The notes under the pieces were generated by a model. The model worked only from the letters and a program-made list of their open reading frames with translations, did no database searches and was not told the origin of the DNA. Below, piece after piece: positions 859 to 36,260 of a stretch of 64,000 nucleotides of DNA (position 1 is its first letter; the number at the start of each line of letters is the position of its first letter). The stretch comes from a virus. Position numbers and translations under genes: made by a program. The stretch covers positions 1 through 64,000 of IMG/VR virus record IMGVR_UViG_3300031111_000011. One strand, given 5' to 3'.

Positions 859-874
859 TGCTCATATCTGAGAA
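859..874. promoter_or_regulatory. palindromic element TGCTCA-tatc-TGAGAA (family copy 1)
   Basis: Matches 16-bp consensus TTCTCA-N4-TGAGAA; lies upstream of the ORF-free 880-1510 stretch. Confidence 0.5.
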
Positions 875-1477
875 GACACACCAAAAACCGGTCCTAATCG
901 GGTCTTATCAGACTTGAGAAGTTGAGTGGGGTTGCGTATAACCAAGCCACGTTGTGAGGGAAACCACAACGGACACGGCGCAAGCCACGTCGCTCTTTTA
1001 CATAGAAGGCCACACGGGATGAGAGGCACAGGGGAAACGGTGCCAGCGAGTAAACCCCATCAATAACATCTCACCTCGTGGCGATGACAAAGATCGGCAG
1101 GGATTTCCCCTGGGGAACGGCTACCCGTCAAGGTCTACTTACTCAAGCCTCAACTTGAGACGCCCAAAATAGTGGCTACGTAGATAAACGGTTAGGGCCG
1201 AGAGCCCAAACGATAACAAAACACACTCAACACGACTCACCATAGCTTGCTTACGGAAAAGTAAGGGATGCGGATGGTGGCAAGTTACTTGCCTTAATAT
1301 CCATTGAAAGCGTCATCCATCGGAAAAGTACGGGCTTCCTGGTGAGTTGTCTCTCCTCTGCTCTCTCATTGGAACATAGAACGGCGTCCCTTTTCATCCC
1401 TTGACATGGTTTCGACTAGGTCATGCGGACAGGATATCACGCCTCGTCGGTCCTTTCGAGGGAGTTGAGGGGAAACC

Positions 1478-1510
1478 AAAGCCCACCATTTAGGTGGTGG
1501 GCTCTGTTTT
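1478..1510 (+). terminator. rho-independent terminator (agcccaccat/ggtggtgggct + tctgtttt)
   Basis: 10-bp stem and T-tract just upstream of the first CDS; would end a non-coding transcript from the 880-1510 region. Confidence 0.6.
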
Positions 1511-1541
1511 CCCTTCAACCTAAGCACAAGGAGCACAGACT

Positions 1542-1847
1542 ATGAAAAAAACTGAACTCTACTTTGGCATGGAAGTCCACGGACGGGATGATGTTACCGA
1601 AGATGAATTCAACGAATTCCTGGAGAGGCATGTCTCCCCTGCTTTTCCTGACGGCCTGACCGTTACCGATGCGCAAGGCCAATGGCTTTCACCCGTGGCT
1701 GGTCTGGTCAAGGAAGGCTCGAAGATCCTGATTCTGCTCCACGATGGCGCGGACAACGCCATTGAATCCATCCGCAATATTTACAAAGCTCTCTTTGCTC
1801 AGGACAGCGTCCTTCGCATTGATCATGCCGTCAACGTCTCTTTCTAA
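1542..1847 (+). CDS. hypothetical protein (101 aa)
   Basis: ORF with SD aaggagcacagactATG. Confidence 0.55.
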   Translation: MKKTELYFGMEVHGRDDVTEDEFNEFLERHVSPAFPDGLTVTDAQGQWLSPVAGLVKEGSKILILLHDGADNAIESIRNIYKALFAQDSVLRIDHAVNVSF

Positions 1848-1857
1848 GGAGGAATCA

Positions 1858-2028
1858 TGACCACTTTTCTGCACTTCGCGGTCTGGATGACAATGTTGGA
1901 CGACCATCTCACTTTGGCAAGCACCAGCACCTGGACGGTCTATCGGTCTTTGCTTAGTCGGCAAACCAGCGAGGGAATCGACCCCTTCTGCAAAAGCATT
2001 GAGCGTTTCTACGGCGCGGATCGATAAC
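1858..2028 (+). CDS. hypothetical small protein (56 aa)
   Basis: Strong SD ctaaggaggaatcATG, 10 nt after previous stop. Confidence 0.45.
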
Positions 2029-2086
2029 CAAACACACCAGGGGAGCACCTTTAGGGGTGCTCCTCACTATGGAGGAGATCTACTAA

Positions 2087-2181
2087 TGAGCCCTGAGCAG
2101 GAGTACAAACGACAACGGGCGAAGATCCTGGCCGAAATCGAACGTAGACAACAACAGCAACAGAAGGAGCGAAAACGATGA
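2087..2181 (+). CDS. hypothetical mini-protein (31 aa, basic/Gln-rich)
   Basis: SD ggaggagatctactaATG; ATGA overlap with next gene. Confidence 0.3.
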
Positions 2182-2345
2182 AACACTTTTTGATCCACTA
2201 CAAGCGGCCCGACAGTGGCCGCATCTATCATGTCGAGGTCACGGGTGAAACCATCATGGATGCCTGGAAGTCCGCACCGGAGCGTGTTCAGTTCCTGGAA
2301 CGAGGGAAAGCGCACCGTCGCTACGGCATAACCGAAATCTGCTGA
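2178..2345 (+). CDS. hypothetical small protein (55 aa)
   Basis: ATGA start-stop coupling; SD aggagcgaaaacgATG. Confidence 0.4.
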   Translation: MKHFLIHYKRPDSGRIYHVEVTGETIMDAWKSAPERVQFLERGKAHRRYGITEIC

Positions 2346-2421
2346 CCGCTTTACGTCTCCGCATCGCCTGGGAATCGGTGCGGAGAGGCAAACCGATCAA
2401 CTCACTCAATAGGAGGTCATC

Positions 2422-2571
2422 ATGGATAACACCTGCGATCAATGTCTATGCAAGAATTGTGACCATCCGGACTGCCCGTACCCATGCAAGGCGCAGCACT
2501 GCTGCGAAGCACCAGTCACTCGATGCCAGGATCTGGAAGATTATCGAAATGCGAAGGGATACAACAAGTAA
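2422..2571 (+). CDS. Cys-rich mini-protein (49 aa, 8 Cys; zinc-ribbon-like)
   Basis: SD aataggaggtcatcATG; CxxCxxC...C...C motifs. Replaces the mis-framed long ORF 2378-2722. Confidence 0.45.
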   Translation: MDNTCDQCLCKNCDHPDCPYPCKAQHCCEAPVTRCQDLEDYRNAKGYNK

Positions 2572-2572
2572 T

Positions 2573-2722
2573 ATGACGGTACAAGACGCACTCGCCAAAT
2601 TGGAAGAGATCCACAGGCCGAAAGGCGAACCCAAAGAGGTGAAACCGTCCACCTTCCGCAGAACGTGGAATGTGAACGAATACCGACTCAGGAGGATGTC
2701 ATGGAAGAGAGGAAAATCATGA
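2573..2722 (+). CDS. hypothetical small basic protein (49 aa)
   Basis: In-frame ATG 2 nt after previous stop; C-terminal part of listed ORF 2378-2722. Confidence 0.35.
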   Translation: MTVQDALAKLEEIHRPKGEPKEVKPSTFRRTWNVNEYRLRRMSWKRGKS

Positions 2723-3003
2723 GCAATCCCAGACTGAACACTCACCTCAAAGGTGAGGAAAAAATCGGCAATTGCACAGTGAGAATGATCCGCAAAACTG
2801 CGAACGAGCAGACCTACGAGTATGTCATCGAGATCATCGGACCCATGCACGGGATCGGTGACACGTACCAGATGGTCAAGATCCACTTCAAAGCGGAGTG
2901 GGGAAACGTGGAAAGCGGCCAGGATGCAGCCATGGATGCGGCTCGAATGTTCCGGAATCTGCGGGAAAGCAACCTTTCCACATTCACCTTCAATGAATCG
3001 TAA
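2701..3003 (+). CDS. hypothetical protein (100 aa)
   Basis: SD aggaggatgtcATG; alternative ATG at 2719 with ATGA overlap. Confidence 0.5.
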   Translation: MEERKIMSNPRLNTHLKGEEKIGNCTVRMIRKTANEQTYEYVIEIIGPMHGIGDTYQMVKIHFKAEWGNVESGQDAAMDAARMFRNLRESNLSTFTFNES

Positions 3004-3019
3004 CCAGGAGGAGAGCAAC

Positions 3020-3175
3020 ATGAAGACCTACCGCATCAAACACCGTAAAGGCAAGAACACGAATCACTGGGCCATCTGGGAAGTCAAGAAGGGAAACAAG
3101 ACGGGACCGCCCAGGATCGTGGCAACGGGACCGTACAGCGAGGTCTGGGCCAAGTTCCAGGAGATCATCGGCTGA
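3020..3175 (+). CDS. hypothetical small basic protein (51 aa)
   Basis: SD ccaggaggagagcaacATG. Confidence 0.45.
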   Translation: MKTYRIKHRKGKNTNHWAIWEVKKGNKTGPPRIVATGPYSEVWAKFQEIIG

Positions 3176-3255
3176 TTGCCTTACGTCCCCACATGAGCGC
3201 TCAAGCGCTTGTGTGGGGAGGCAAGCCAATCAACACACTAAAAGGGGAGGATTTC

Positions 3256-3429
3256 ATGACGTACTGGAATTGGATGTTGGACCTGATCTTTGATTTCGCA
3301 CCATTTAACCATGATCTGGCTGCTTTTGTCCGGGATCTGGGAATGTCCGCTCAGGTCATGCCATTGCACCGGGATCACCACGAACTGTTCGGGGAAATCG
3401 TGGACAGTTGGCACGGTGACAACCGATAG
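3256..3429 (+). CDS. hypothetical small protein (57 aa)
   Basis: SD aaaggggaggatttcATG inside listed ORF 3193-3429. Confidence 0.45.
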   Translation: MTYWNWMLDLIFDFAPFNHDLAAFVRDLGMSAQVMPLHRDHHELFGEIVDSWHGDNR

Positions 3430-3438
3430 GAGGAAATC

Positions 3439-4010: not shown

Positions 4011-4019
4011 GAGGAGCTA

Positions 4020-4439
4020 ATGGTATCAGCCCAGATAGCGGAGAAGATCCAAAAAGTCCACGCACTTGCCGAACGCGGCATCAACGGGGAAAAGGCAGCA
4101 GCAGAACGGCTGCTTGCCAGCCTACTCACCAAGCACGATGTCACCCTGGAGCAGGTGGGCATCTTCAATGCCAAGCGATCCTGGCACACATTCTCTTTCC
4201 AAGACAAACAACAGAAAGCTTTTCTCTCTCATATCATCGCAGCAGTAGTAAAACGGAAGTATAGTGCGGAGATAAATGGGAAGAAGTTTTTTGCATGGAT
4301 GACTGAAGACGAGGCCACAAACGCACGGCTTGCTTACGTTAAAGCGAAGAGATACTATAACCGGGAAGTAAAGTCTGCAAAAAACAGAACAGCGAATATG
4401 ATCATCAACTCACTCTACACCAAAGGAGAAGCACAATGA
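4020..4439 (+). CDS. hypothetical protein (139 aa)
   Basis: SD taggaggagctaATG. Confidence 0.55.
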   Translation: MVSAQIAEKIQKVHALAERGINGEKAAAERLLASLLTKHDVTLEQVGIFNAKRSWHTFSFQDKQQKAFLSHIIAAVVKRKYSAEINGKKFFAWMTEDEATNARLAYVKAKRYYNREVKSAKNRTANMIINSLYTKGEAQ

Positions 4440-5332
4440 CCCTCATGAAAAAGATCGAAAACGGAACTGATGCCATCCTCGCCATGGAAGAAGCCGGACA
4501 CAATTACACCGTCAGCAAGGTGCCCCTGGTTCTGCCCAACGGCGCGACGGTGCCCGATATGTGCGCCACGGTTACCGACGATGGCCGGTATCTGGGCACT
4601 GTGGGGCGGGACTTCCAACCCGTTCAGCCAGTGGACGTCTACGGGATTGCCCAGAACATGATCGATCTTTCCGGAGGCCAGATCACCAAGGTCGCAACTC
4701 TCCACGATGGTGGGTCGATGGCGATTTCCATCCACCTCCAACGGATGGAGCCGGTCACTGGGGACGTTGTGGATCTGGACTTCCTGCTCATGGCGGGGAA
4801 CAACGGCAAGATGGCGGTCCAGGGCCGATCCTTGTCAACCCGATTCTTTTGCATGAATCAACTTCCTTCGTCCACCTCACTCTTTTCCCTGAAGCACACC
4901 GTGAATGTTCTTTCTCGGATGGAGACGGCCACCAAGATGCTGGCCTACTACAACCGGGAACTCACCAAGTTCCAGGATGCCCTGCGGGTGCTCACTCGCT
5001 TCCGACATCCTGAAAAACAAGCGCTGGAATGGTTCACTGGGCTTCTCCCTGCTCCCCAGAAGGACAGCAAACGCAGTGCGTCCATCCACGAGAATACCGT
5101 GGAAACCTTCATCGAGCTACTCCACGACGGCCAGGGCGCAAATCATCCCGGTGTCCGTGGAACCGGATGGGGATCGCTGAATGCCCTGACGGAGTGGGTG
5201 AATCACCATCGGTCCACTCGTGTCCGGGGTGACCGTGATCCGGAGGAGGTCAAATTCACCTCCGTGACCATGGGGTCCGGTGATCAACTGATGCAGAAGG
5301 GGCTCAAGTCCCTACTCAAGATTGCCGTGTAA
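4436..5332 (+). CDS. hypothetical protein (298 aa), possibly DUF932-like
   Basis: ATGA overlap with upstream gene; size and composition resemble DUF932 proteins (unverified). Confidence 0.5.
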   Translation: MTLMKKIENGTDAILAMEEAGHNYTVSKVPLVLPNGATVPDMCATVTDDGRYLGTVGRDFQPVQPVDVYGIAQNMIDLSGGQITKVATLHDGGSMAISIHLQRMEPVTGDVVDLDFLLMAGNNGKMAVQGRSLSTRFFCMNQLPSSTSLFSLKHTVNVLSRMETATKMLAYYNRELTKFQDALRVLTRFRHPEKQALEWFTGLLPAPQKDSKRSASIHENTVETFIELLHDGQGANHPGVRGTGWGSLNALTEWVNHHRSTRVRGDRDPEEVKFTSVTMGSGDQLMQKGLKSLLKIAV

Positions 5333-5964: not shown

Positions 5965-5974
5965 GGAGGAGTCC

Positions 5975-6686: not shown

Positions 6687-6974
6687 ATGAAAGAGCATCG
6701 ATTCACCATCGAAAGTGCGGCCCAGGTCAGAGCCAAGGTCAAGGCGTTTCAGGAACTGACCGATGCCAAGAAGGTTGAGGTTCGGGTTCGAGGCCCGTTC
6801 CAATTCGACAAGTCCAAGGATCAGCCCATCTTCATTTCCGCACCGGATGGGGATCTGGTCACCGTCTCGGATAAGGCGGGGACCGCTATCCACCGAGCCT
6901 CCAAGCAGGACATCAAACTGGGGGCCAATCCCGACCTGGATTTTCCCCAGGTCTGTATTCTGCGGGTCAGATAA
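6687..6974 (+). CDS. hypothetical protein (95 aa)
   Basis: SD atgggaggtaaacATG. Confidence 0.5.
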   Translation: MKEHRFTIESAAQVRAKVKAFQELTDAKKVEVRVRGPFQFDKSKDQPIFISAPDGDLVTVSDKAGTAIHRASKQDIKLGANPDLDFPQVCILRVR

Positions 6975-7041
6975 GCTCATTTCGTGGCGGGTCCGGTCCA
7001 CTGTGACCGGATCTGTCACACACACTCGATAAGGAGGATCG

Positions 7042-7179: not shown

Positions 7180-7208
7180 TTGACCTACCGCCTGTAATTT
7201 ATATCATA
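7180..7208 (+). promoter_or_regulatory. sigma70-like promoter TTGACC-N16/17-TATCAT upstream of LuxR-family gene
   Basis: -35/-10 spacing; about 40 nt upstream of the ATG at 7249. Confidence 0.4.
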
Positions 7209-7248
7209 TTTCCAGTGAGTTGAACTCTCAACGGAAAGGGTCCAGGTC

Positions 7249-8028
7249 ATGGAAAAACTCAGAGAGGCAATGTCCAAGGTGCTACGAGACGTAGGCGAAG
7301 GGTACGAACTGTTCTTGCTGGTTACTTACCACAGTCAGACCACTGGGGTCACCATCTTGGACAAGGATCTGACCATCCTCTGGTACAACCCATATGTCCA
7401 AAAATACTTTGGCCTTGAGTTCATTAACACTAATTACCTTGACAGGTTTCCTGGGGAGCAGAGAGAGGCCACGAAGAGTCAACTGCGGCAAGCAGAAAGG
7501 ACCGGGGTCAGTGATCCTGCGCTCCTTCAGCCCCCAGGTGTTGAGATGGTTGTCGAAAGGCGCATCTGGGCAGTCTCAGGCGGGTACATCGCCGCATCCT
7601 ACGACCACACCGTACTCACTCAAGCAGAACAACGCACCAAGGATGTACAGACCACACTGACCCTCTTAGCTGAGGCGCGGGAGGGGCTGATACGGGATGC
7701 CCAACTCAAGACACTGGATATGATGGAAACTCACTGCAAGGCAATCTGCGGCAAATATGGGAACCGAAGCCCGTATGAGTGCAAGTCGAGAAAGAAAGTG
7801 CTGGCTGAGATCCTGGCAGGTAGGCCCAGGCTCCAGACCACACTCACTGACACTGAACTGGAGGTGGCTCGGCTCTACCAAGCGGGTCATCGGAGAAAGG
7901 AGGTTGCCGAGATCCTCGATGTGTCTGAGCATACGGTAAAAAATCATAGTACCTCCATCAGAAAAAAGCTTGGCATGAACAACCCAAGTGTGTCCCTTAT
8001 TGAGTATCTTCAACGGTTTACCTTATAG
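7249..8028 (+). CDS. LuxR/FixJ-family transcriptional regulator with N-terminal PAS-like sensor domain (259 aa)
   Basis: C-terminal HTH TDTELEVARLYQAGHRRKEVAEILDVSEHTVKNHSTSIRKKLGM matches the LuxR-type HTH signature; the N-terminal ~120 aa have PAS-like composition. Confidence 0.7.
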   Translation: MEKLREAMSKVLRDVGEGYELFLLVTYHSQTTGVTILDKDLTILWYNPYVQKYFGLEFINTNYLDRFPGEQREATKSQLRQAERTGVSDPALLQPPGVEMVVERRIWAVSGGYIAASYDHTVLTQAEQRTKDVQTTLTLLAEAREGLIRDAQLKTLDMMETHCKAICGKYGNRSPYECKSRKKVLAEILAGRPRLQTTLTDTELEVARLYQAGHRRKEVAEILDVSEHTVKNHSTSIRKKLGMNNPSVSLIEYLQRFTL

Positions 8029-8177
8029 GACCGGATTAGGACCAGAATGGGACTTAACAAAATATTCTGGCATTGTTAAGTATTTCCTAATCAGGTCGGA
8101 ACCCAGTGATTTAGAACCTTTGGAAGACGGAAGGAGGCAGACGCTCACTTAGGTCGATCTCCCATAAATGGTACACC

Positions 8178-8207
8178 TTGACATACGGAGATGTGAGAAG
8201 GTACAGT
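8178..8207 (+). promoter_or_regulatory. sigma70-like promoter TTGACA-N17-(G)TACAGT
   Basis: Consensus -35; the spacer contains the half-site aTGTGAGAAg of the palindrome family. Confidence 0.4.
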
Positions 8208-8268: not shown

Positions 8269-8628
8269 ATGGAGATCCAAAAGAAAAAGGCCATCAAGAA
8301 TGTTCTCACTGCTTGCAAGCTCATCCGCAAGGAATTCGGTGACCTCCCCTACCCCCAGTTAATTTGTCTGCTGGAGGTCATGGTCGAGGAAGGGATTACA
8401 AAAAACCAAATCGGGGCAAATAACGATCCGACGATGCCAGTAAGCTCTATCAACAGATATGTTGCGAGGCTCACAGACGAGCACGAGCGCAGAAACGCAG
8501 CAGGAAAGCGGGTTCCCGGTCCCCTGACAGTGGATCGAGATCCTGACCTTCCCCAACGTCACCTCGTGAGTCTGACGTCTTTTGGCAAGTTGTTTCGGGA
8601 AGCCCTGGTCAATGAAATGGAGGCTTAA
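8269..8628 (+). CDS. putative winged-helix DNA-binding protein (119 aa)
   Basis: SD aaagggagtcaagaATG; helix-rich small protein downstream of a promoter and nested inverted repeats. Confidence 0.45.
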   Translation: MEIQKKKAIKNVLTACKLIRKEFGDLPYPQLICLLEVMVEEGITKNQIGANNDPTMPVSSINRYVARLTDEHERRNAAGKRVPGPLTVDRDPDLPQRHLVSLTSFGKLFREALVNEMEA

Positions 8629-8849
8629 TGACCAGCCAGGAAATCACTTTTCAGTTCGATGATAACACCCTTAGTGTTGAGGTGGCAGAGGACGGGATCA
8701 ACACTGAGGGTGCGCTATTCCGCTTGAATAAGATCTCTCTGGATGATCAAGAGGAATTGGGTAAGCTCAGGCGACACATAAATGATGCGCTCACCCGATA
8801 CCAAATGCTGCTCGAAAAATATCCAGAGGCAAAGGATGGAGAGATGTAA
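8628..8849 (+). CDS. hypothetical acidic protein (73 aa)
   Basis: TAATG overlap coupling. Confidence 0.5.
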   Translation: MTSQEITFQFDDNTLSVEVAEDGINTEGALFRLNKISLDDQEELGKLRRHINDALTRYQMLLEKYPEAKDGEM

Positions 8850-8865: not shown

Positions 8866-8898
8866 TGAGGAGGGGTTGGCACCTCTCCTCTTTTTTTC
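8866..8898 (+). terminator. rho-independent terminator (gaggagg...cctctcctc + T7)
   Basis: Stem followed by ttttttt; immediately precedes palindrome copy 2. Confidence 0.6.
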
Positions 8899-8906: not shown

Positions 8907-8922
8907 TTCTCATATCTAAGAA
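8907..8922. promoter_or_regulatory. palindromic element TTCTCA-tatc-TAAGAA (family copy 2)
   Basis: Between the terminator and the SD/ATG of 8937. Confidence 0.5.
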
Positions 8923-8936: not shown

Positions 8937-9134
8937 ATGTCTATTTGTGATCGGTGTGCGACCGGGTGTTGGACAGCCCCGAGTGTCCGTTGTCAGGCTT
9001 GCAATGCAGGTAGTCTGTTCATTCCCAATGGGGAACCCCACAAGGTGATGCCCCCGGTGCTTCACAAGGAAACCGAGACGTTTGGGTGGATTCTCCGCAA
9101 ACAGCTTCGGGAGAGATGCTACGATGCAACTTGA
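8937..9134 (+). CDS. Cys-rich small protein (65 aa)
   Basis: SD aaggaggaaagcgactATG; CDRC...C..C...C motif. Confidence 0.5.
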   Translation: MSICDRCATGCWTAPSVRCQACNAGSLFIPNGEPHKVMPPVLHKETETFGWILRKQLRERCYDAT

Positions 9135-10465: not shown

Positions 10466-10719
10466 GAATTCAACTCACTCCAGAGGAGATCGACGGACTG
10501 AAGACGTGGTTGGCGTACCCAAAGAAGGTCCGCAGAGGGGAATGTCCGTTTGTCTTTGTGCCGGGGAATACCTGTGCTCGTATCTGCCGCATGGTTTTTC
10601 CGGGTGATGAACTCGGCCTGTGCCCCTGTGACCAAGAGGGCGCAGACCATAAAAAAATCTATGAAGTTGCACGAGAAGGTGCGGAAAGGGGGTACATCAC
10701 AATTGGACTCGGACATTAA
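10462..10719 (+). CDS. hypothetical Cys-containing protein (85 aa)
   Basis: ATGA overlap; internal Met of listed ORF 10375-10719. Confidence 0.45.
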   Translation: MRIQLTPEEIDGLKTWLAYPKKVRRGECPFVFVPGNTCARICRMVFPGDELGLCPCDQEGADHKKIYEVAREGAERGYITIGLGH

Positions 10720-11713
10720 TGGCACGGTGATTTTTCTGACACCGTTTGGATCGCATCTCTACGGTACATCCACTCCGGAGTCGGATCTGGACTACAAGGG
10801 GGTGTATCTGCCGACAAAGGAGCAGATCCTGATCGGGAAGATCCCCAAGACTATCACTCGAAACACCAAGGTCGGAGAGGGGAAGAACAGCAAGGAAGAC
10901 ATTGACTTTCAACTTTATTCTCTCCCCTACTTTGTGGACCTTCTGGTCCAGGGTGAAACGTCGGCTATCGACATGATCCATGTCCGAAAGGATCAAGCTC
11001 TCGTGTGGACGGATGAGTGGGAACGGCTGCACCGCAACCGTCACATGAGCTACAGCAGAAATATGAAGGCGTTCGTCGGGTATGCCCGTAAACAAGCGGC
11101 CAAGTACGGGGTCAAAGGCAGTCGCCTTGCAGCCATGCAAGACGTCCTTGAATACCTGATGGCCTATATCCAGAAGGAGATTCTGTATGATTATGAACGT
11201 GATACCAAACTTCGAGACGTATGGGATGATCTTCCTGATGGTGATCATATTCATCGTCTTGATCCGACTGATCGAACTCCTTATCGCATGTATCAGGTCT
11301 GTGGGAAGAAGTTTATGGAGACAGTCAAGATTCGAGAAGTCTACGCTTCGATCAAGAAGTCCTATGATCAATACGGTCACCGGGCAGAACTGGCGAAGAA
11401 GAATCAGGGCATCGACTGGAAGGCAGTATCCCACGCACTCCGTGCGGCTTACCAACTGGTGGAAATCTTTGGGTCCGGGGATCTGGCCTTTCCACTCGCT
11501 GATGCGGCTTATCTGCGGAAAGTGAAGGAAGGCTCACTGGACTGGACCTCCTGGGTTCAACCCCACCTGGAGGAAATGATGGGCCGGGTGGAGTGTATGG
11601 CCTCTCTCTCCAAATTCCCAGAACAAGTGGACCGGACCTTCTGGAACAATCTGACTATCGACATCATGGAAACGTGGTTACTTACTCAAACTGTAGGAGG
11701 TGAATTATGCTGA
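10661..11713 (+). CDS. nucleotidyltransferase (Pol-beta/minimal NTase fold) of unknown specificity (~350 aa)
   Basis: TPFGSHLYGTSTPESDLDYKG fits hG[GS]-x9-13-D-x-[DE]; a third acidic motif EDIDFQLY lies ~45 aa downstream; start uncertain (ATG 10661 overlaps upstream gene). Confidence 0.55.
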   Translation: MKLHEKVRKGGTSQLDSDINGTVIFLTPFGSHLYGTSTPESDLDYKGVYLPTKEQILIGKIPKTITRNTKVGEGKNSKEDIDFQLYSLPYFVDLLVQGETSAIDMIHVRKDQALVWTDEWERLHRNRHMSYSRNMKAFVGYARKQAAKYGVKGSRLAAMQDVLEYLMAYIQKEILYDYERDTKLRDVWDDLPDGDHIHRLDPTDRTPYRMYQVCGKKFMETVKIREVYASIKKSYDQYGHRAELAKKNQGIDWKAVSHALRAAYQLVEIFGSGDLAFPLADAAYLRKVKEGSLDWTSWVQPHLEEMMGRVECMASLSKFPEQVDRTFWNNLTIDIMETWLLTQTVGGELC

Positions 11714-12794: not shown

Positions 12795-12824
12795 TTGACA
12801 ACTTACCAGATGTGATTATATTAT
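12795..12824 (+). promoter_or_regulatory. sigma70-like promoter TTGACA-N17/18-TATTAT overlapped by inverted repeat CCAGAT...ATCTGG
   Basis: Consensus -35; AT-rich -10 flanked by a 6-bp inverted repeat (operator-like). Confidence 0.45.
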
Positions 12825-12854
12825 ATCTGGTTTCGGGAAATAGTAATTAACTAA

Positions 12855-12881
12855 CAGACCCTTGAGGGTCTGTGTTTTTTT
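12855..12881 (+). terminator. rho-independent terminator (cagaccc ttga gggtctg + T7)
   Basis: Perfect 7-bp stem plus tgtttttttt; lies ~35 nt downstream of the promoter. Confidence 0.65.
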
Positions 12882-12890: not shown

Positions 12891-12906
12891 TTATCAAATC
12901 TGAGAA
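12891..12906. promoter_or_regulatory. palindromic element TTATCA-aatc-TGAGAA (family copy 3)
   Basis: Between the terminator and SD aaggagg of 12918. Confidence 0.5.
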
Positions 12907-12917: not shown

Positions 12918-13223
12918 ATGAAAGAGTGTAACCGTTGCGGGAACCGGGAGTGTGACTTCATTCACGCTCCCAAGGAGCCGAAGGGCAAACCCAAAATGAG
13001 CTTTCCGAAGCTCCGGAAAGCCCCTCCAAAGGGGATCGCCCATGTTATGGGGCTTCCGTGCCCCATTTGGCGAAAAATCGACCCGATGCACAACCCTCTG
13101 TGGGAGAACCTGGACTCGGCCACCATCGTCAAGCTCCGGGATCTGCGGAAGGGGCTCGGCACACAGCGAAAAAACAAGGAGTGGAAAGGAGGCAAGAAGC
13201 GTAAACTTTGGAAAAACAGGTAG
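12918..13223 (+). CDS. hypothetical basic protein (101 aa)
   Basis: SD caaggaggattATG; Lys/Arg-rich. Confidence 0.55.
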   Translation: MKECNRCGNRECDFIHAPKEPKGKPKMSFPKLRKAPPKGIAHVMGLPCPIWRKIDPMHNPLWENLDSATIVKLRDLRKGLGTQRKNKEWKGGKKRKLWKNR

Positions 13224-14434: not shown

Positions 14435-14449
14435 TTTTTTACCATTTAC

Positions 14450-14465
14450 TTCTCACATTTGAGCA
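14450..14465. promoter_or_regulatory. palindromic element TTCTCA-catt-TGAGCA (family copy 4)
   Basis: Immediately upstream of SD taaggagag. Confidence 0.45.
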
Positions 14466-18165: not shown

Positions 18166-18181
18166 TTTTTTTCACTTGTCA

Positions 18182-18197
18182 TTCTCAAATCTGAGAA
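18182..18197. promoter_or_regulatory. perfect palindromic element TTCTCA-aatc-TGAGAA (family copy 5)
   Basis: 13 nt upstream of SD aaaggagg of 18210. Confidence 0.55.
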
Positions 18198-26393: not shown

Positions 26394-26422
26394 GGAAGGG
26401 GCATATATTTTTTGCCCCTTCC
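26394..26422 (+). terminator. terminator-like hairpin GGAAGGGGCA-tatattttt-TGCCCCTTCC
   Basis: Perfect 10-bp stem with T-rich loop, immediately followed by palindrome copy 6. Confidence 0.5.
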
Positions 26423-26438
26423 TTCTCAATATTGAAAA
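26423..26438. promoter_or_regulatory. palindromic element TTCTCA-atat-TGAAAA (family copy 6)
   Basis: Directly upstream of SD aaaaggagg of rtcB. Confidence 0.45.
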
Positions 26439-26446: not shown

Positions 26447-27661
26447 ATGGAAAAGGTCATGTTTTCATCAGGCAGAATCCCTGCCTACTCATGGTTACCA
26501 GTGGACAAACTGGAGGAAGGCGCTCTGGAACAGATCCAGGCTTGCACTGCCCACCCCAAGGCTTACCACCACATGGCTGTGATGCCCGACTGTCACCAGG
26601 GATATGGGATGCCCATTGGCGGTGTGGTTGCCCTGGACGGCGCAATCAGCCCCAACATGGTGGGGGTGGACATCGGCTGTGGGATGAGTGTGGTCCGCAC
26701 CAACGCCAAATTCGTTCACACTTATCAAATCAAGGAAATCCTGAACCGACTCAAGACCATGGTTCCTGTCGGTGAGGGGAAGTTTCGATCTGACCCCGTC
26801 TCCTGGCCCAAGTGGGTGGAGTATCTGGACAAGGTCAAGGAGCGTCCTGACTGGATGAAGGGCTCTAACTGGCATCGGTTCAAGTGCAGCATGGGAACTC
26901 TGGGAGGTGGGAACCACTTTCTGGAGCTTCAGCGGGATGAAGAGGGTTACCTCTACATGATGCTCCACTCCGGTTCCCGTGGCCTGGGGTACGCCATTGC
27001 CAAGTACTACAACGAACTGGCCCAGACCTACTGCGTCAACCTAGACATCCCCAACAAAGATCTGGCTTACCTGCCGACCGATCACAAGTGGGGGCAAGCC
27101 TACATCCGGGACATGAACTTCGCCCTGGCTTTTGCCAAGGAAAACCGCAGGGTCATGATGGATGCCTTCAAATTCGCTTTCTTCCACGTTCTTGGATCTC
27201 CTGTCCGGGAGGACATTGATGTTGTCGATGAGATCGACATCCACCACAACTACGCGGCATTGGAGCACCACTTCGGCAAGGATCTGTGGGTTCACCGGAA
27301 AGGCGCGACTTCGGCCCAGTCTGGACAACTGGGGATCATTCCCGGTTCCATGGGAACCCACTCCTACGTCGTCGCTGGTAAGGGGAACCCGGACTCCTTC
27401 AAGTCCTGCTCCCACGGTGCTGGTCGAGTGAAGGGTCGGATGGCCGCTACTCGTGAACTCGACCGGATGGAGCAGGAGAGGAAGATGGACGGCATTGTCT
27501 TTGACGGGTTCAAAACCCTGAAGAAGGGTAAGCTGAAAGGTGCGTATGACCTGGGCGAAGCCCCTGATGCCTACAAAAATATTGATACTGTCATGTGGCA
27601 CCAGGGGGATCTGGTGGACGTGGTAGTAAAACTCAAACCGATAGGAGTCTTGAAAGGGTGA
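26447..27661 (+). CDS. rtcB: RNA-splicing ligase RtcB (3'-phosphate/5'-OH RNA ligase, 404 aa)
   Basis: RtcB signatures HMAVMPDCHQGYG, GGNHFLELQ, MLHSGSRGLG, CSHGAGR; ATG 4 nt after SD. Confidence 0.9.
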   Translation: MEKVMFSSGRIPAYSWLPVDKLEEGALEQIQACTAHPKAYHHMAVMPDCHQGYGMPIGGVVALDGAISPNMVGVDIGCGMSVVRTNAKFVHTYQIKEILNRLKTMVPVGEGKFRSDPVSWPKWVEYLDKVKERPDWMKGSNWHRFKCSMGTLGGGNHFLELQRDEEGYLYMMLHSGSRGLGYAIAKYYNELAQTYCVNLDIPNKDLAYLPTDHKWGQAYIRDMNFALAFAKENRRVMMDAFKFAFFHVLGSPVREDIDVVDEIDIHHNYAALEHHFGKDLWVHRKGATSAQSGQLGIIPGSMGTHSYVVAGKGNPDSFKSCSHGAGRVKGRMAATRELDRMEQERKMDGIVFDGFKTLKKGKLKGAYDLGEAPDAYKNIDTVMWHQGDLVDVVVKLKPIGVLKG

Positions 27662-28638: not shown

Positions 28639-28937
28639 AGCTGATCTGCTGTCCCTCTTGTTGGGACGTGTTCAAACTCGCCAAGGAAGAGCGCACCTGC
28701 TCATGCGGACGGTGCTCAGGCAGGTACCTCAACAACACCTACGCCGAGACAAATGGTGAGGGAATCAACCTCGCCATTGGCAACGGGTCACTCCTGCAAG
28801 CGGCTTACAACCTCGACCACTTTGCGAAGGACGCAGAGCGTCACGAGTTCATCGACCACAACCCCGTGATCTGTTGGGTCCGTCCTCCAGAAGGACCGGG
28901 AAACCCACACACCACTGTACGAAAGGAGGAATCATGA
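28635..28937 (+). CDS. Cys-rich protein (100 aa)
   Basis: ATGA overlap; CCPSC...CSCGRC cluster. Confidence 0.5.
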   Translation: MKLICCPSCWDVFKLAKEERTCSCGRCSGRYLNNTYAETNGEGINLAIGNGSLLQAAYNLDHFAKDAERHEFIDHNPVICWVRPPEGPGNPHTTVRKEES

Positions 28938-30322
28938 ACCCCATTCTGAATACTGACTCTTACAAAGCGAGTCATTACAGGCAGTACCCTGAAGATGTGG
29001 CCTGGGTGAGTTCCTATATCGAAGCACGGGGTGGAAAATACCCTGAGACGGTTTTCTTCGGGCTGCAAGCCTTCCTGAAGGAGTACCTAAGCAAACCCTT
29101 CACCCAGGCTCATATCAATGAGGCAGAGGACTTCTGGGAGGCTCACGGCCTCCCGTTCAATCGGGGAGGGTGGGAATACATCCTCGCCAGATACCGGGGC
29201 TATATGCCTATTTTGATCCAGGCGGTGGATGAGGGCTCGGTGGTTCCCACTGGCAATGTTCTTGTTCAGATTATTAACACTGACCCTGAAGTTCCCTGGA
29301 TCACCAGCTACGTGGAAACCGCTCTGCTCCGGGCAATCTGGTACCCCACCACGGTGGCTACCCTTTCCCACTTCTGCAAGCGAGATCTCTACAACTACTG
29401 GAAGGAGTCGAGTGACGCTCCTATTGAGTCCCTGGACTTCAAACTTCACGACTTCGGTGCTCGTGGGGTGAGTTCCCTGGAATCTGCTGGACTGGGTGGG
29501 ATGGCCCACCTCGTCAACTTCAAAGGCACCGATACGGTGGAAGGGGTTCTCGCTGCAAGACGGTACTACAACGAGCCCATGGCAGGATACTCAATCCCTG
29601 CTGCCGAGCACTCCACCATCTGCTCCTGGGGCGGTCCAGGACGAGAAATGGATGCCTTCCGAAACATGATCAGCCAGTTCGGTGGAGACTATCCACTGAT
29701 CGCTGTGGTCAGCGATTCGTACAATATCTGGGACGCAGTGGATAACAAATGGCCTTACCTGGATACCGAGATCAGTGCCAGTGGGTCCACCATCGTGGTC
29801 CGTCCGGACAGTGGAGATCCCCACATCGTACCTGTCGAGGTGATCAGCCGTCTCATGCAGAAGTTCGGATTCACGGTCAATAGCAAGGGCTACCACGTCC
29901 TTCCGGATCGAATTCGAGTTATCCAAGGCGACGGGATTACCGGCGATAGCCTGAATCGCATCCTGTTCAACCTCCGGATGAAGCGTCTCAGCATCGACAA
30001 TATTGCCTTTGGTATGGGTGGTGGGCTGCTCCAGCAGATCAACCGGGATACCTGCAAGTTCGCCATGAAGTGCAGTGCGGTTGCTGGCAAGAGCAACCAA
30101 TGGCAACCGGTGTTCAAGCAACCTGTGGATCAGCCTGACAAGGTGAGCAAAAAGGGTCGGCTGAACCTGATCCGGAACTCGGATGGTGAGTTCGAGACGG
30201 TCCCGGAGAAGTGGGAAGAGTCGCGGGGGGTTATGCCCATCCGGAGCATTAACGGGCTCCGCTACCACACCACAACTTTCGAGGAAATCCGGGGACGGGT
30301 CCAGGAGCACCTCATTGCTTAG
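28934..30322 (+). CDS. nadV: nicotinamide phosphoribosyltransferase (NAMPT/NadV, 462 aa)
   Basis: MNPILNTDSYKASHYRQYPE N-terminus and overall length typical of NAMPT; SD aaaggaggaatcATG. Confidence 0.85.
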   Translation: MNPILNTDSYKASHYRQYPEDVAWVSSYIEARGGKYPETVFFGLQAFLKEYLSKPFTQAHINEAEDFWEAHGLPFNRGGWEYILARYRGYMPILIQAVDEGSVVPTGNVLVQIINTDPEVPWITSYVETALLRAIWYPTTVATLSHFCKRDLYNYWKESSDAPIESLDFKLHDFGARGVSSLESAGLGGMAHLVNFKGTDTVEGVLAARRYYNEPMAGYSIPAAEHSTICSWGGPGREMDAFRNMISQFGGDYPLIAVVSDSYNIWDAVDNKWPYLDTEISASGSTIVVRPDSGDPHIVPVEVISRLMQKFGFTVNSKGYHVLPDRIRVIQGDGITGDSLNRILFNLRMKRLSIDNIAFGMGGGLLQQINRDTCKFAMKCSAVAGKSNQWQPVFKQPVDQPDKVSKKGRLNLIRNSDGEFETVPEKWEESRGVMPIRSINGLRYHTTTFEEIRGRVQEHLIA

Positions 30323-33398: not shown

Positions 33399-33604
33399 TG
33401 CAATGGATTCATAGGAGTTCTGTGCTGCGGAAGGCAGAATGGCACCGTTGGTTTGCTTGGCACCCCGTGGCTGTGAAAACATATCCGGATGGTTCCGAGA
33501 AGATGATCTGGTGGGAACCTGTTCTCCGTCGAGGAGAGCTTCAACTTGTATTGGATGGTGTCGAGTGGGTCTACGAATATAAGGAGATCGAAGGGGATGA
33601 CTGA
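33395..33604 (+). CDS. hypothetical Trp-rich protein (69 aa)
   Basis: ATGA overlap. Confidence 0.45.
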   Translation: MMQWIHRSSVLRKAEWHRWFAWHPVAVKTYPDGSEKMIWWEPVLRRGELQLVLDGVEWVYEYKEIEGDD

Positions 33605-33764
33605 AGAAAAGAAAAGTATCACCTGCAAGTGCGGTCACTTCAGTGAGTTTCCTGCCTACGTTTACGCTCACTGGTACCACCAGCTTGTTTGGAGATGCCC
33701 GGAATGTGGAACAAGATACGACCTGTTGGCGGGTGTCTACAAGGAGGATGAATATGAAGACTAA
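33597..33764 (+). CDS. Cys-rich mini-protein (55 aa, C4 zinc ribbon)
   Basis: CKCGHF...CPECGTRY. Confidence 0.4.
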   Translation: MTEEKKSITCKCGHFSEFPAYVYAHWYHQLVWRCPECGTRYDLLAGVYKEDEYED

Positions 33765-34032
33765 TCACATGAATGCCTGTTACAAGTGCAAGTGGAGCAG
33801 ACGGGTTCCAGGCAGCAGCCATCACCAGTGCTGCATCCTGGGGCTACATTATGTTGAACGCACTGAGGGTAGGGGATTCGTTGCTCCCACCAGTATGCAC
33901 CCTGTGGAGAAGGGTTGGTTCCTCTGGCCTTTCAACTTTGATCCGGTGTGGCTTGAGTTCTGTGTAGAGTGGGAACGCCAGCGTGAAATCCTGTTCCGGA
34001 AGTTTGACAATATTCTGAGAAAGGAGGCTTAA
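33751..34032 (+). CDS. Cys/His-rich protein (93 aa)
   Basis: CYKCKW...HHQCC. Confidence 0.45.
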   Translation, partial: NMKTNHMNACYKCKWSRRVPGSSHHQCCILGLHYVERTEGRGFVAPTSMHPVEKGWFLWPFNFDPVWLEFCVEWERQREILFRKFDNILRKEA

Positions 34033-34235
34033 TGCCTGTTCGACATCTCACTGCAACAAAGGATGGTCCAAAGGAAGTGGACCTGACTCCTGTCAAAGCC
34101 ATTCGCCTTCACTGCCTTGAGTGTATGGGGTGGGAGGTGACTGAAGTTCGTAAGTGTACTCGCCCAACTTGCCCTCTATTTCCGTTTAGACTTGGAAAGA
34201 ATCCTGGGCGTAAGGGTGTCGGCCCTCAGTCGTAA
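34032..34235 (+). CDS. Cys-rich protein (67 aa)
   Basis: TAATG overlap; CLECMGWE...C..C. Confidence 0.45.
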   Translation: MPVRHLTATKDGPKEVDLTPVKAIRLHCLECMGWEVTEVRKCTRPTCPLFPFRLGKNPGRKGVGPQS

Positions 34236-34250
34236 GTAGGACACTCTACT

Positions 34251-34367
34251 ATGAAGACCCACCGCTATAAGTGTCATAGATGCGGCTACGTGACCTACGT
34301 CACTTACCTGGACGGTGAGGATGGAGTTTGTCCTCATTGCCTCACTCCGATCATTCTACCTATCTAA
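34251..34367 (+). CDS. zinc-ribbon mini-protein (38 aa)
   Basis: CHRCGY...CPHC; last gene before the terminator. Confidence 0.35.
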   Translation: MKTHRYKCHRCGYVTYVTYLDGEDGVCPHCLTPIILPI

Positions 34368-34372
34368 TAGAA

Positions 34373-34409
34373 AAGCCCCCTTCCCTTAACCGGGTTGGGG
34401 GCTTTTTTG
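34373..34409. terminator. bidirectional intrinsic terminator (aagccccc...gggggctttttt)
   Basis: A-tract, 7-bp GC stem, T-tract; separates the + block from the - strand int module. Confidence 0.6.
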
Positions 34410-34420
34410 CGTTCCAGGGC

Positions 34421-34648
34421 TTAGTGGATGGGGTCACCAAGGAACACGTAGAAGGGCAAACCACAATGCTTACACCACGCATCCATGCCCCACGAACCAT
34501 CACCAAGTTCCCGGTACTCACCGACTTCAGTGATCATCTCAGAGCACTGGATGCACTCGATCTCGATGGATGCAACGGACATGTCGTCGGACATGTCCAC
34601 AGTCCCAATTTCCTGGCCGACCACATTAAGAGCTTTGTATTTTGTCAT
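34421..34648 (-). CDS. small Cys-containing protein coupled to integrase (75 aa)
   Basis: ATG overlaps the integrase stop (ATGA); CIQC...CKHC. Confidence 0.45.
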   Translation of the reverse strand: MTKYKALNVVGQEIGTVDMSDDMSVASIEIECIQCSEMITEVGEYRELGDGSWGMDAWCKHCGLPFYVFLGDPIH

Positions 34649-35940
34649 TAGCCCACCTTTCCGAAGAGGGGAATCACCTGGGCTGTCTTGGGTGCGTGGA
34701 CCCCGTCATCCTCCCAAGGATGGAACTGAGCAGCCCACTCATCGATGAGCCTCTTCCCCTCCTCCTTGAGGGTCTTCTCAAAGTGGATGTAGTCCTGGGT
34801 GATCAGTGCTCCCATCTGGATTGGGTCACCCTTCTTCTGGATCGTATGAGAGAGCATCACACTCACCAGACGTTCGTTCCCAGACACCTCATAGAGTTTG
34901 GTAGCCAGAGTGTGTCGGAACTTGTGGAAGGATTCACTCTCCTTCCTACTCTTGCCCTTCTGGACCCCAAACAACAGTTCCCTGGCCTGATTGATTGGTC
35001 GTCGAGAGTGCCATTTGAACCGGAACACCTTACCAGTGTATTTGGCCGATCCGTGTTTTTTGGACTGTACCAATTTAATAGCGTCCTTGACGATCTCAGG
35101 CATGTAGAACCATGCCCACTTCCCGTCATTCGGACCCTTTCGCAGGAACTTGAGGGTTCCTTCCTTCCAGTCGATCCGGTCCCACCACACTCCCACATCC
35201 TTCTTATGGTTCCCGTTCCCAGTGAGTTCATGGACTCGGAACCCCATGAAGAAGCCCAGGCAGACCTGGGCGTAAGCTTCGGCCCATCGGAGTCCATCCA
35301 CCCCCTCAGTTTGTCTGTACAGGAACCGTAGCAGCTTGGCTACTTCCTCATCCGTGAACGTCCGGACATCCTCCATCAATTCCTCCTCAGTAGGTTCGGT
35401 GCTGACAGGTTTGACCAGATCAGCCGGGTTAGCCCCGGCGTACAGACCCTCCCCAAGGGCAAACTTGTACAGGTTCCGGATCGTGCTGATGAAGGCGTTG
35501 ATCGTGGTCGGTGCGTAGTGCCCCTCCTTGACCAAAGCCCTCTGAAACACCCGGAGCTTGCCTGGGGTGATTGCCGCCAGGGGCTCATGTGCGAACCATT
35601 TCTTAAACCGCTGGTTGTACTTGGATTGGTAGTTCGGCACAGCCGATGCTCCCACCTTTTCCATGTGCTCCAGCCACAACTTGTACGCCCGACTGAAAGT
35701 GATCGCTTCGAGCTTGTCCGGGATGGCCTGTCCCAGTTTGAGCTTCTGAAGCATCTTATTCCGCTCCTCCTCAGCGATCTGAAGGGAGAATCCGTTGTCC
35801 TCCCTGCCCACCTGGAACCGCTTGTTCTTACCATCCACCTTCACCATGAAGCTGAAGGTCTTGCCATCCCTGCCGTGGTAGGTGTAACAGCCCCGGTGCC
35901 GCTTGCTTGCTACGTGTGTCCCGATTTTCCCCTTTGCCAT
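34648..35940 (-). CDS. int: tyrosine-type site-specific integrase (431 aa from SD-supported start)
   Basis: C-terminal catalytic motifs R...HKFRHTLAT...LSHT...Y; start set at MAKGK with SD aaaggaggtagaATG (listed ORF extends 23 codons further upstream without an SD). Confidence 0.85.
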   Translation of the reverse strand: MAKGKIGTHVASKRHRGCYTYHGRDGKTFSFMVKVDGKNKRFQVGREDNGFSLQIAEEERNKMLQKLKLGQAIPDKLEAITFSRAYKLWLEHMEKVGASAVPNYQSKYNQRFKKWFAHEPLAAITPGKLRVFQRALVKEGHYAPTTINAFISTIRNLYKFALGEGLYAGANPADLVKPVSTEPTEEELMEDVRTFTDEEVAKLLRFLYRQTEGVDGLRWAEAYAQVCLGFFMGFRVHELTGNGNHKKDVGVWWDRIDWKEGTLKFLRKGPNDGKWAWFYMPEIVKDAIKLVQSKKHGSAKYTGKVFRFKWHSRRPINQARELLFGVQKGKSRKESESFHKFRHTLATKLYEVSGNERLVSVMLSHTIQKKGDPIQMGALITQDYIHFEKTLKEEGKRLIDEWAAQFHPWEDDGVHAPKTAQVIPLFGKVG

Positions 35941-36107
35941 TCTACCTCCTTTCGTGGGGTAACAAACCCCGGTTTGATTGTGACTTTCTTGTGACTTTTG
36001 GCCCGTCATGACTTACTGCAATAATTCAATTTTTCAAGTCTGGGCAAATATAACAACTCCGCAAACCTTTGTCAATAGCGAACTTCTCGTGTGTTATCAG
36101 TACCTTC

Positions 36108-36123
36108 TGCTCACATCTGAGAA
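36108..36123. promoter_or_regulatory. palindromic element TGCTCA-catc-TGAGAA (family copy 7)
   Basis: In the int-structural intergenic region. Confidence 0.45.
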
Positions 36124-36173
36124 GCTCGATTCGTTACCCCTGCGTCCAGAACCACTCACTCTAATTTACTCAA

Positions 36174-36212
36174 TAAAAAAAGGGACATAGCCTATAATTT
36201 GGCTATGTCCCT
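36174..36212 (-). terminator. intrinsic terminator at the end of the minus-strand structural operon (agggacatagcc...ggctatgtccct + T7 on - strand)
   Basis: 12-bp stem; the aaaaaaa on + is the U-tract on -. Confidence 0.65.
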
Positions 36213-36244
36213 CGTGTGTGTTTGTGACCTATAGGTGACTTTAG

Positions 36245-36260
36245 TTCTCAATATTGAGAA
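36245..36260. promoter_or_regulatory. perfect palindromic element TTCTCA-atat-TGAGAA (family copy 8)
   Basis: Abuts the stop codon of the last minus-strand gene. Confidence 0.5.

Follow-up and report, generated by a model that had tools for sequence, protein, structure and literature searches.

Candidate operator palindromes at a fixed distance from T-runs in an uncultured phage and its relatives

The stretch of DNA analysed here (the window; positions 1 to 64,000 of the IMG/VR virus record IMGVR_UViG_3300031111_000011) represents 64 kb of a metagenomic phage genome of ~67 kb, and it contains a family of 16-bp palindromes of the type TTCTCA-N4-TGAGAA. Copies at the heads of transcription units follow a short run of T residues (T-run) at a fixed distance, and the same layout recurs with different palindrome arms in related phages. 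With a probability of roughly 0.55, we consider these palindromes to be double-stranded DNA operators of a dimeric phage repressor of the MarR family, encoded at 8269-8628, which would also act as stoperator-like roadblocks to transcription.

The palindromes are strongly enriched in the window. Two perfect copies are found against 0.00 expected, and nine copies with at most one mismatch against 0.34 expected, a number reached by none of 100 shuffles; at up to two mismatches, the count (10 against 4.2 expected) is uninformative. Two more copies, L289 7954-7969 (perfect) and L289 8043-8058, lie in a 2.9-kb segment outside the window, which is added by L289, a second assembly of the same phage that closes the map at ~66.9 kb. 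The genome thus holds 11 copies, all of them non-coding. An earlier sequence-only reading of the window had located eight of these copies, with those at 18182 and 36245 as perfect, and all eight were recovered at a frequency far above expectation; the copy at 905-920, the fixed T-run spacing, the promoter-terminator-site units and the phage-specific variants were absent from it. The nine copies in the window, with their neighbouring elements, are listed below.

859-874, plus strand: TGCTCATATCTGAGAA, one mismatch, in a gene-free region that precedes the early genes; the next copy is 46 bp away.
905-920, plus strand: TTATCAGACTTGAGAA, one mismatch, the ninth copy.
8907-8922, plus strand (W1): TTCTCATATCTAAGAA, one mismatch, preceded by hairpin 8867-8890, T-run 8891-8897 and a 9-nt spacer; it abuts the Shine-Dalgarno (SD) sequence of a small Cys-rich gene starting at 8937.
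12891-12906, plus strand (W2): TTATCAAATCTGAGAA, one mismatch, last element of a unit made up of promoter 12795-12822, terminator 12854-12873, T-run 12875-12881, 9 nt and the palindrome, after which come an SD sequence and a gene at 12918.
14450-14465, plus strand (W3): TTCTCACATTTGAGCA, one mismatch, directly after the helicase stop codon, with T-run 14435-14440 9 nt upstream, no terminator hairpin, and an SD sequence and TTG start (14479) downstream.
18182-18197, plus strand (W4): TTCTCAAATCTGAGAA, perfect, with T-run 18166-18172, which begins right behind the DNA polymerase stop codon, and a 9-nt spacer upstream, and without a canonical hairpin.
26423-26438, plus strand (W5): TTCTCAATATTGAAAA, one mismatch, preceding rtcB; hairpin 26394-26422 carries T-run 26408-26413 in its loop, and its 3′ arm forms the 9-nt spacer.
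36108-36123, plus strand: TGCTCACATCTGAGAA, one mismatch, its centre ~75 bp upstream of where the minus-strand integrase promoter begins.
36245-36260, plus strand: TTCTCAATATTGAGAA, perfect, directly adjoining the stop codon of the final late gene (36261-36587, minus strand), with the late-operon terminator 36213-36180 shortly behind it.

A half-site weight matrix applied to the reconstructed 66.9-kb genome gave scores of 18.7-26.2 bits for the 11 sites and 13.9 bits for the next best one, while the top scores in shuffled sequences were mostly 9-16 bits, with one of 20 at 20.5. The site is an 8+8 symmetric element with a symmetric, partly conserved centre; its 22 half-sites converge on TTCTCA(A/G)A, and the centres of the arms are 10 bp apart, as in the sites of helix-turn-helix (HTH) dimers. 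Palindromes of 16 bp imply a dimeric protein. DNA looping between paired sites was rejected on the site coordinates, the spacings of 46, 56, 88-89 and 137 bp being out of helical phase.

The five gene-proximal copies (8907, 12891, 14450, 18182 and 26423) share a strict arrangement, in which each begins exactly 9 nt downstream of a T6-T7 run and ends 0-2 nt before the SD sequence, without exception. They had previously been placed 2-15 nt upstream of the SD sequence; the adjacency holds, and the measured gap is shorter. These units occupy five of the 11 plus-strand T-runs of at least 6 nt within 1-36400. A G+C-rich terminator hairpin ahead of the T-run is present only at 8907 and 12891, where hairpins 8867-8890 and 12854-12873, each with a T7 tract, form canonical terminators. 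A third terminator had been assigned to 26394-26422, and this assignment could not be maintained because the T-run sits in the loop of that hairpin. At 14450 and 18182, the T-run comes after a stop codon. Since the sites at 14450, 18182 and 26423 have no canonical terminator, the T-run is not simply a terminator tail.

A sixth unit was found on the minus strand, outside the window, before a tRNA-Glu gene. In the direction of transcription it consists of the following elements.

L289 8049-8022, minus strand: consensus promoter, its -35 element inside the palindrome 8043-8058.
L289 8003-7987, minus strand: short hairpin, a weak terminator match.
Minus strand, next in order: T-run TTTTATTTTT, then a 9-nt spacer.
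L289 7969-7954, minus strand: perfect palindrome.
L289 7947-7870, minus strand: tRNA-Glu gene.

In this flipped unit, the T-run is again on the upstream side with respect to transcription, and the order of promoter, hairpin or terminator, T-run, 9 nt and palindrome is the same as in the 12891 unit. Its location before a tRNA gene indicates that the unit does not need a ribosome-binding site. Three units lie ~40-80 nt downstream of consensus promoters and are therefore transcribed leaders rather than promoters. A sigma-70 promoter inside the unit was rejected, as neither a -10 nor a -35 element fits, whatever the register, and the palindrome is too close to the SD sequence to leave space for one. 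The geometries of alternative sigma factors, MerR-type regulators and class-II activators were dismissed by reasoning that the predicted start would fall in the SD sequence or the coding region.

Twelve contigs of relatives, with DNA polymerases 50-60% identical to that of the window, were fetched for comparison. Occurrence in related phages had been named as a check by the sequence-only reading, and the outcome is divided: the window motif TTCTCA-N4-TGAGAA is present in none of the 12, whereas eight of them (L001, L002, L083, L084, L085, L286, L287 and L290) carry the same unit with palindromes of their own. The layout of T-run, 9 (±1) nt and 16-bp palindrome is seen ~18-20 times in nine phages, with arms that differ in most of them. 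L084, L085, L002 and L286 have one or two copies each, and three more distant contigs (L003, L288 and L291) have no recognisable units. The arms are as follows.

Window: TTCTCA/TGAGAA.
L001: ATTACG/CGTAAT, palindrome ATTACGAAATCGTAAT, four sites against 0.12 expected.
L083: GTTAC/GTAAC, palindrome GTTACGAGTTGGTAAC, 3-4 sites against 0.16 expected.
L287: GTTGCC-N4-GGCAAC, four intergenic copies and one at a promoter read by eye.
L290: ACTAC-N4-GTAGT, three sites against 0.26 expected.
L084 and L002: CTTAC/GTAAG.
L085: TATTAC/GTAATA.

The units are located at equivalent junctions across the phages, namely after the operon of the MarR-like gene and before the Cys-rich and primase genes, before the helicase module, and right after the DNA polymerase stop codon; the last of these, the W4 junction, holds the own palindromes of L287 and L290. 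In 18 units analysed jointly, to which L290 adds two or three, the T-run measures 5-9 nt and the spacer is mostly 9 nt, with a measured range of 9-12 nt in which two entries counted at 10-11 nt began 1-2 nt into the palindrome. At least seven of the 18 have the T-run without any terminator hairpin, suggesting that the T-run is part of the element itself, and only ~6 of the 18 have a strong one. The sequence of the spacer is not conserved between phages, and the spacer as a conserved motif or IHF site was rejected for this reason. An IMG/VR scan for the T-run plus spacer sequence returned chance matches only.

Several further observations concern sequences of this type. A degenerate unit precedes the first early gene (1542) at 1507-1535 on the plus strand, in which terminator 1480-1503 and a short T-run are followed by the spacer cccttcaac and a decayed 16-mer, CTAAGCACAAGGAGCA. 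A separate palindrome, GTTGAACTCTCAAC (7219-7232), is located immediately past promoter 7180-7207 and before the PAS-LuxR gene; several units (12891, 1511-1519, L084 and L290) likewise have TCAAC at the end of the 9-nt spacer. Inside the rtcB coding sequences of L001 (19345-19390) and L084 (11071-11110), a T7 run and 9 nt are followed by a palindrome, TCGTTACGAAAGTGCAACGA and CCCTTACGTGTAAGTAAGGG, respectively, each related to the operator of its own phage. In the 22-kb locus of L002, the 8-mer ACACTTAC, which includes the CTTAC half-site of the L002 palindrome, occurs 13 times on one strand and seven times on the other, in coding and non-coding DNA, against ~0.3 expected per strand. An IMG/VR palindrome scan also revealed unrelated contigs in which two palindromes of the TTCTCA-N4-TGAGAA type stand 33 bp apart in intergenic DNA (L445 556-604, L453 4143-4191, L468 2278-2326, L406 6896-6944 and L454 1651-1699). 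A tblastn search of these contigs gave no homologue of the MarR-like protein of the window, and another phage group may use the same operator sequence.

Palindromes of this design also overlap promoters. The L289 8043-8058 copy contains the -35 element of a minus-strand promoter that matches 11 of 12 consensus positions and heads the tRNA/late operon. In L001, a perfect palindrome (6961-6976) forms the whole 16-nt spacer of a TTGACA-N16-TATAAT promoter, and a second unit is positioned at about +11 to +42 from its estimated start. In L287, where a promoter was recognised by eye ahead of the MarR-like gene, a copy overlaps its -35 element and spacer. Overlap with the -35 element or the spacer implies repression of initiation. 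Collectively, the earlier proposal that the sites are operators for a dimeric regulator is the best supported reading, as palindromes of the same design overlap promoters both here and in relatives. Within the window, the following features are relevant.

263-278, plus strand: weak copy TGTGCAGATCTGAGAA, 13.9 bits, within shuffle noise and backed by context only, ending 3 nt before the -35 element of promoter 282-311.
8184-8199, plus strand: half-site AGATGTGAGAA, weakly scoring, in the spacer of the MarR-like gene's promoter (8178-8207).
12795-12822, plus strand: sigma-70-type promoter TTGACA-16-TATATT, 11 of 12 consensus positions, heading the W2 unit, with a degenerate copy (12803-12818) in its spacer.
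36047-36075, minus strand: sigma-70-type promoter, 11 of 12 consensus positions, driving the integrase gene, downstream of the 36108 copy.

The half-sites noted earlier in the spacer of promoter 8178-8207 and beside promoter 282-311 are indeed present, with scores that taken alone lie within shuffle noise; the former is a candidate autoregulation site as far as its sequence and position indicate. A further TGAGAA (319-324) is found just past the -10 element of promoter 282-311. The right arm of the 905-920 copy overlaps the -35-like TTGAGA of a possible promoter, TTGAGA-17-TATAAC (913-941), which was read by eye and was not reported by the promoter scan. Three direct ATCTGAC repeats with an 11-nt period (371-399, TATCTGACAACATCTGACAGTATCTGACC) are similar to the ATCTGAG portion of the half-site and may be iterons or additional half-sites. 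In addition, a non-coding element of ~22 nt, TCGATCTCCCATAAATGGTACACC (core CCATAAATGG), is situated just upstream of the MarR-like gene or its promoter (8154-8177 in the window; L001 ~3300, L083 ~2560-2590, L286 ~6845-6870, L287 ~4440-4465 and L290 ~4275-4300), and it is kept in six phages whose proteins share only 25-60% identity.

The most likely binding protein, on the evidence of gene position and helix comparison, would be the following.

8269-8628, plus strand: MarR-family winged-helix protein of 119 aa, PHROG 9665 'transcriptional regulator', encoded beside the first site.

In six phages (the window, L001, L083, L286, L287 and L290), a MarR-family gene, for a protein of ~110-120 aa, is located immediately ahead of the first unit. 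Five of six aligned orthologues match Pfam MarR_2/MarR (PF12802/PF01047), with a best E value of 1.4e-9, and the family profile matches MarR structures almost exclusively, down to E = 9.6e-9. The window protein is 23-30% identical to its orthologues, and a homologue search with it returned only itself. Among six protein/site pairs, the recognition helix differs wherever the arms differ, and this co-variation strengthens the winged-helix protein that the sequence-only reading had put forward as one of two candidates. The helices are as follows.

Window: PTMPVSSINRYV.
L287: RSNKGTISRIV.
L290: LLQGTVSKNC.
L001: KTTRATVSRSV.
L083: KTTRAAVSRNV.

The KTTRAxVSR helix is common to L001 and L083 only, and so is the TTACG half-site. 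The protein may be the lysogeny repressor or a timer of the lytic cycle; the phage also carries an integrase gene and a gene of the KilA-N/Bro/ANT type, which would fit the former.

It is unlikely that operators of the same type are bound by another phage protein, such as the PAS-LuxR (GerE) protein (7249-8028), the other candidate of the sequence-only reading, a 73-aa protein (8628-8849) or the KilA-N protein. Dimers of the GerE type bind inverted repeats of 16-20 bp, the PAS-LuxR gene adjoins the MarR-like gene, and the 73-aa gene is kept directly downstream of the MarR-like gene in relatives. Nevertheless, a GerE gene was seen only in the window and L001; L083, L286, L287 and L290 have none in the 20-kb stretch fetched of each and all keep the units, which makes the PAS-LuxR protein a poorer candidate. 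Moreover, it is the recognition helix of the MarR-like protein that tracks the arms, in an analysis of co-variation made for this protein. The combination of PAS and GerE/LuxR domains is the one found in regulators that sense ligands or light, such as EL222 or VqmA, and only the HTH domain of the window protein matches solved structures by sequence.

The palindromes could alternatively function as RNA, forming a 6-bp stem with a 4-nt loop before the SD sequence, with a role in processing, in 5′ stabilisation or as the target of an RNA-binding translational repressor of the phage, and with the pyrimidine-rich spacer sequestering the SD sequence. The sites do lie in transcribed leaders abutting SD sequences, their arms vary between phages yet remain complementary, and two contexts, 26423 (z = -3.2) and 36245 (z = -3.1), fold better than shuffles. 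However, the other seven of nine contexts fold no better than shuffles, the predicted hairpin is missing (dG >= -0.3) in five of 11 copies of the window phage and in 11 of 29 across all phages examined, and the best hairpin among the window copies reaches only -4.4 kcal/mol. None of eight copies with one mismatch keeps the pairing, G-U pairs included, so that the arm changes are uncompensated; the events being few, this is an absence of support for an RNA function and not a disproof. The best copies of L001 and near L289 8050 lie in untranscribed -35/spacer promoter DNA, and one unit precedes a tRNA gene. For an RNase III site of the T7 type, which takes a double-stranded RNA stem of about two turns, the stems of at most 6 bp are far too short. 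Taken together, the RNase III-like or translational hairpin that had been offered as the alternative is improbable.

Under the operator reading, the sites would fall into two classes. In the first class, copies or half-sites over core promoter elements would block initiation; the clearest case would be the copy over the -35 element of the tRNA/late-operon promoter, outside the window, and weaker cases would be the spacer of the regulator's own promoter (8178-8207) and the sites at the 282, 913 and 12795 promoters. The second class would comprise the six copies that head transcription units and follow a T-run at exactly 9 bp, at which we infer that the bound protein would be a roadblock to RNA polymerase. 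The 9-bp gap would place the active site of the blocked polymerase on the T-run; a polymerase halted by EcoRI-Q111 reportedly stops ~14 bp before the site. Whether or not a hairpin precedes the T-run, the weakness of the rU:dA hybrid there would promote release of the transcript. Leaky terminators, and weak or hairpin-less T-runs, would thereby become regulator-dependent terminators guarding each module, and the strong promoters at 12795 and of the tRNA/late operon would be double-locked. At LacI roadblocks, cooperating polymerases read through unless the paused polymerase is removed (PMC4132739), and the need to prevent queued polymerases from overcoming the block provides a rationale for a release-promoting T-run. 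A more specific proposal is put forward only tentatively, and we think it may well be wrong: T-run, 9 bp and operator would form a protein-dependent terminator that releases the transcript on a U-tract without hairpin, Rho or Mfd, with about six per genome and a specificity of its own in each phage, silencing or timing modules, including the tRNA/late operon, in a clade of uncultured temperate phages.

Several points weigh against the operator reading. The promoter-associated sites within the window are weak, with scores of 8-14 bits that lie within shuffle noise. L003 has a MarR-like gene and no recognisable units. The window protein 8269-8628 by itself reaches no Pfam threshold, its single-sequence AlphaFold model (mean pLDDT 48) is unusable, and the co-variation of arms and helix is drawn from only six protein/site pairs. 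The palindrome centre is asymmetric in a way that the window and L287 keep consistently, and one L083 site has it reversed. The pyrimidine-rich spacer pairs with the SD sequence in four of five predicted folds, as an RNA element would have it, and a minor contribution at the RNA level is thus possible.

A positive role of the bound protein, at a loading or antitermination site past the leader terminators or at an activator site, is quite improbable. Such a role would suit the terminators found 12-25 nt after consensus promoters, a design calling for regulated read-through, and the copies at about -74 and -75 of two promoters. On the other hand, the sites are downstream, not upstream, of the terminator hairpins, the polymerase would run into a protein 9 bp past the T-run, overlap with the -35 element or spacer is typical of repression, and the palindrome and SD sequence leave no room for a promoter between them.

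It is very improbable that the element is a phage-specific promoter served by an RNA polymerase or sigma factor of the phage that escaped recognition. As with promoters of the T7 type, a conserved motif of ~32 nt, directional in the window, is found upstream of gene starts and after terminators, and many open reading frames (ORFs) are without annotation. Yet Pfam and PHROG scans of 50 ORFs, all large ones included, detected no RNA polymerase or sigma domain, in accordance with the earlier remark that the window has no gene for a single-subunit RNA polymerase. A PDB search found no match to solved structures for the 2235-aa protein, and an N4-like virion RNA polymerase within it was rejected, as Pfam, PHROG and PDB searches gave no support. 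Only the symmetric arms are conserved, not the spacer or the 9 nt, one L083 site is inverted, and units stand just downstream of consensus sigma-70 promoters. Equally remote are module-boundary or recombination sequences for gene shuffling without a protein partner, like T4-type PeSL cassettes or lambdoid boundary sequences; although the sites lie at module junctions with downstream genes that differ between relatives, recombination substrates should be shared, whereas the arms differ in most phages while the geometry is kept, and the palindromic symmetry and promoter overlap would be left unexplained.

With respect to the genomic background, coding sequence makes up ~91% of the window. Early and replication genes occupy the plus strand between 1542 and 34235, among them those for DUF932, PAS-LuxR and MarR-like proteins, primase, RlaP, KilA-N, DnaB-like helicase, family A DNA polymerase, RNR, RtcB, NAMPT and ligase. 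The integrase gene (34648-36009, minus strand) is followed by the structural genes on the same strand, which include an SU10-type portal and the 2235-aa LPD38 protein and are headed by 21 tRNA genes. These tRNA genes form one minus-strand cluster (L289 5528-8459, outside the window, and window 62077-63735) with small ORFs between them, and a T8A7 tract lies between the consensus promoter of the cluster and a divergent one, likewise of consensus type. From the 859/905 palindromes to the first early gene, ~680 nt (860-1541) contain no credible gene and, in an Rfam scan of the whole window, no match; the stretch closes with terminator 1480-1503 and the decayed unit, and it includes CTTACGGAAAAGTAAG (1250-1265), a perfect palindrome of the TTAC-N6-GTAA type that relatives use. 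A set of genes for RNA repair and NAD salvage, encoding an RlaP-type nucleotidyltransferase, RtcB ligase and NAMPT (10550-11713, 26447-27661 and 28934-30322, respectively), is also carried by relatives and may counter host defences that cleave tRNA or deplete NAD.

The DNA polymerase of the window is identical to a protein on a 67,101-bp JGI contig and at most 35% identical to those of the nearest sequenced phages (tblastn, GenBank phages), and BLASTN of GenBank phages gave zero matches. Roughly 60 relatives have a DNA polymerase that shares at least 45% identity with it. An IMG/VR search with the DNA polymerase protein found no relatives; in its alignment against IMG/VR and metagenomes, only distant marine relatives were kept among the matches listed. 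A GTDB genome scan returned only relatives of 23-30% identity over a full-length match, mostly from Verrucomicrobiota, giving no clue to the host.

Among known systems, the closest comparison is with the stoperators of the L5/cluster A repressor (gp71 family), which are located at promoters and in short intergenic gaps, are proposed to halt elongation in the latter, and have an orientation tied to transcription (PMC9283540). The present sites similarly consist of one proposed repressor motif in many copies at promoters and in short intergenic gaps at gene heads, six of them away from promoter cores. The L5 sites, however, are asymmetric 13-mers, present in more than 20 copies per genome and bound by a monomer with two DNA-binding domains, whereas there are 11 palindromes of 16 bp here and the candidate protein, unlike gp71, belongs to the MarR family; the palindromic site and the different protein family would make this system a functional analogue and not a member of the L5 family. 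To our knowledge, no fixed T-run 9 bp upstream has been described for stoperators.

MarR-family repressors such as MepR, SlyA, OhrR and MexR are small winged-helix dimers that bind palindromes or pseudopalindromes of 16-20 bp over -35 and -10 elements and are often autoregulated. The phage protein family resembles them in its profile match to MarR structures, but cellular MarR proteins usually act at one or two divergent promoters, whereas ~11 sites are distributed over this genome, most of them not at promoters. As with the roadblocks formed by LacI, CodY, CcpA and EcoRI-Q111, a DNA-bound protein within the transcription unit is proposed to stop the polymerase. Roadblock efficiency depends on how quickly the stalled polymerase is removed (PMC4132739). 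In the known roadblocks this removal is performed by Mfd or Rho, and they are not known to have a conserved U-tract at the stall position, whereas a T-run at a fixed 9 bp accompanies ~18-20 units in nine phages here.

The SAS and ESAS repeats of cluster K mycobacteriophages, of which the latter are inverted, are found just upstream of the starts of some non-structural genes, and no function has been assigned to them (PMC3203893). SAS, an asymmetric 13-mer with the ribosome-binding site inside it, is conserved throughout the cluster, and ESAS has 17-bp arms with a variable spacer; the present sites, in contrast to both, are found at promoters and ahead of a tRNA gene as well, and they differ between related phages. 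The RNase III sites of T7 are likewise intergenic and located between transcription units, but they are irregular RNA hairpins of ~20 bp or more, unlike the present stems of at most 6 bp, which are often mismatched and uncompensated. The element is not an RNase III site, an SAS/ESAS repeat or a phage-polymerase promoter.

If the operator reading is correct, the stoperator principle, in which one repressor silences a phage genome through elongation blocks at many sites in addition to blocking initiation, would extend beyond actinobacteriophages to an unrelated uncultured clade with another repressor family, and the mechanistic addition would be a U-tract that forms part of the unit where the polymerase stalls. 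These units are modular and ~32 bp long, with at least six orthogonal specificities and matching small regulators, and they would in that case be attractive as programmable conditional terminators; the layout also offers a practical rule for annotating the regulatory architecture of metagenomic phage genomes. Compared with all of these systems, what is new here is the conserved geometry of a T-run and a 9-bp gap together with a set of phage-specific specificities.

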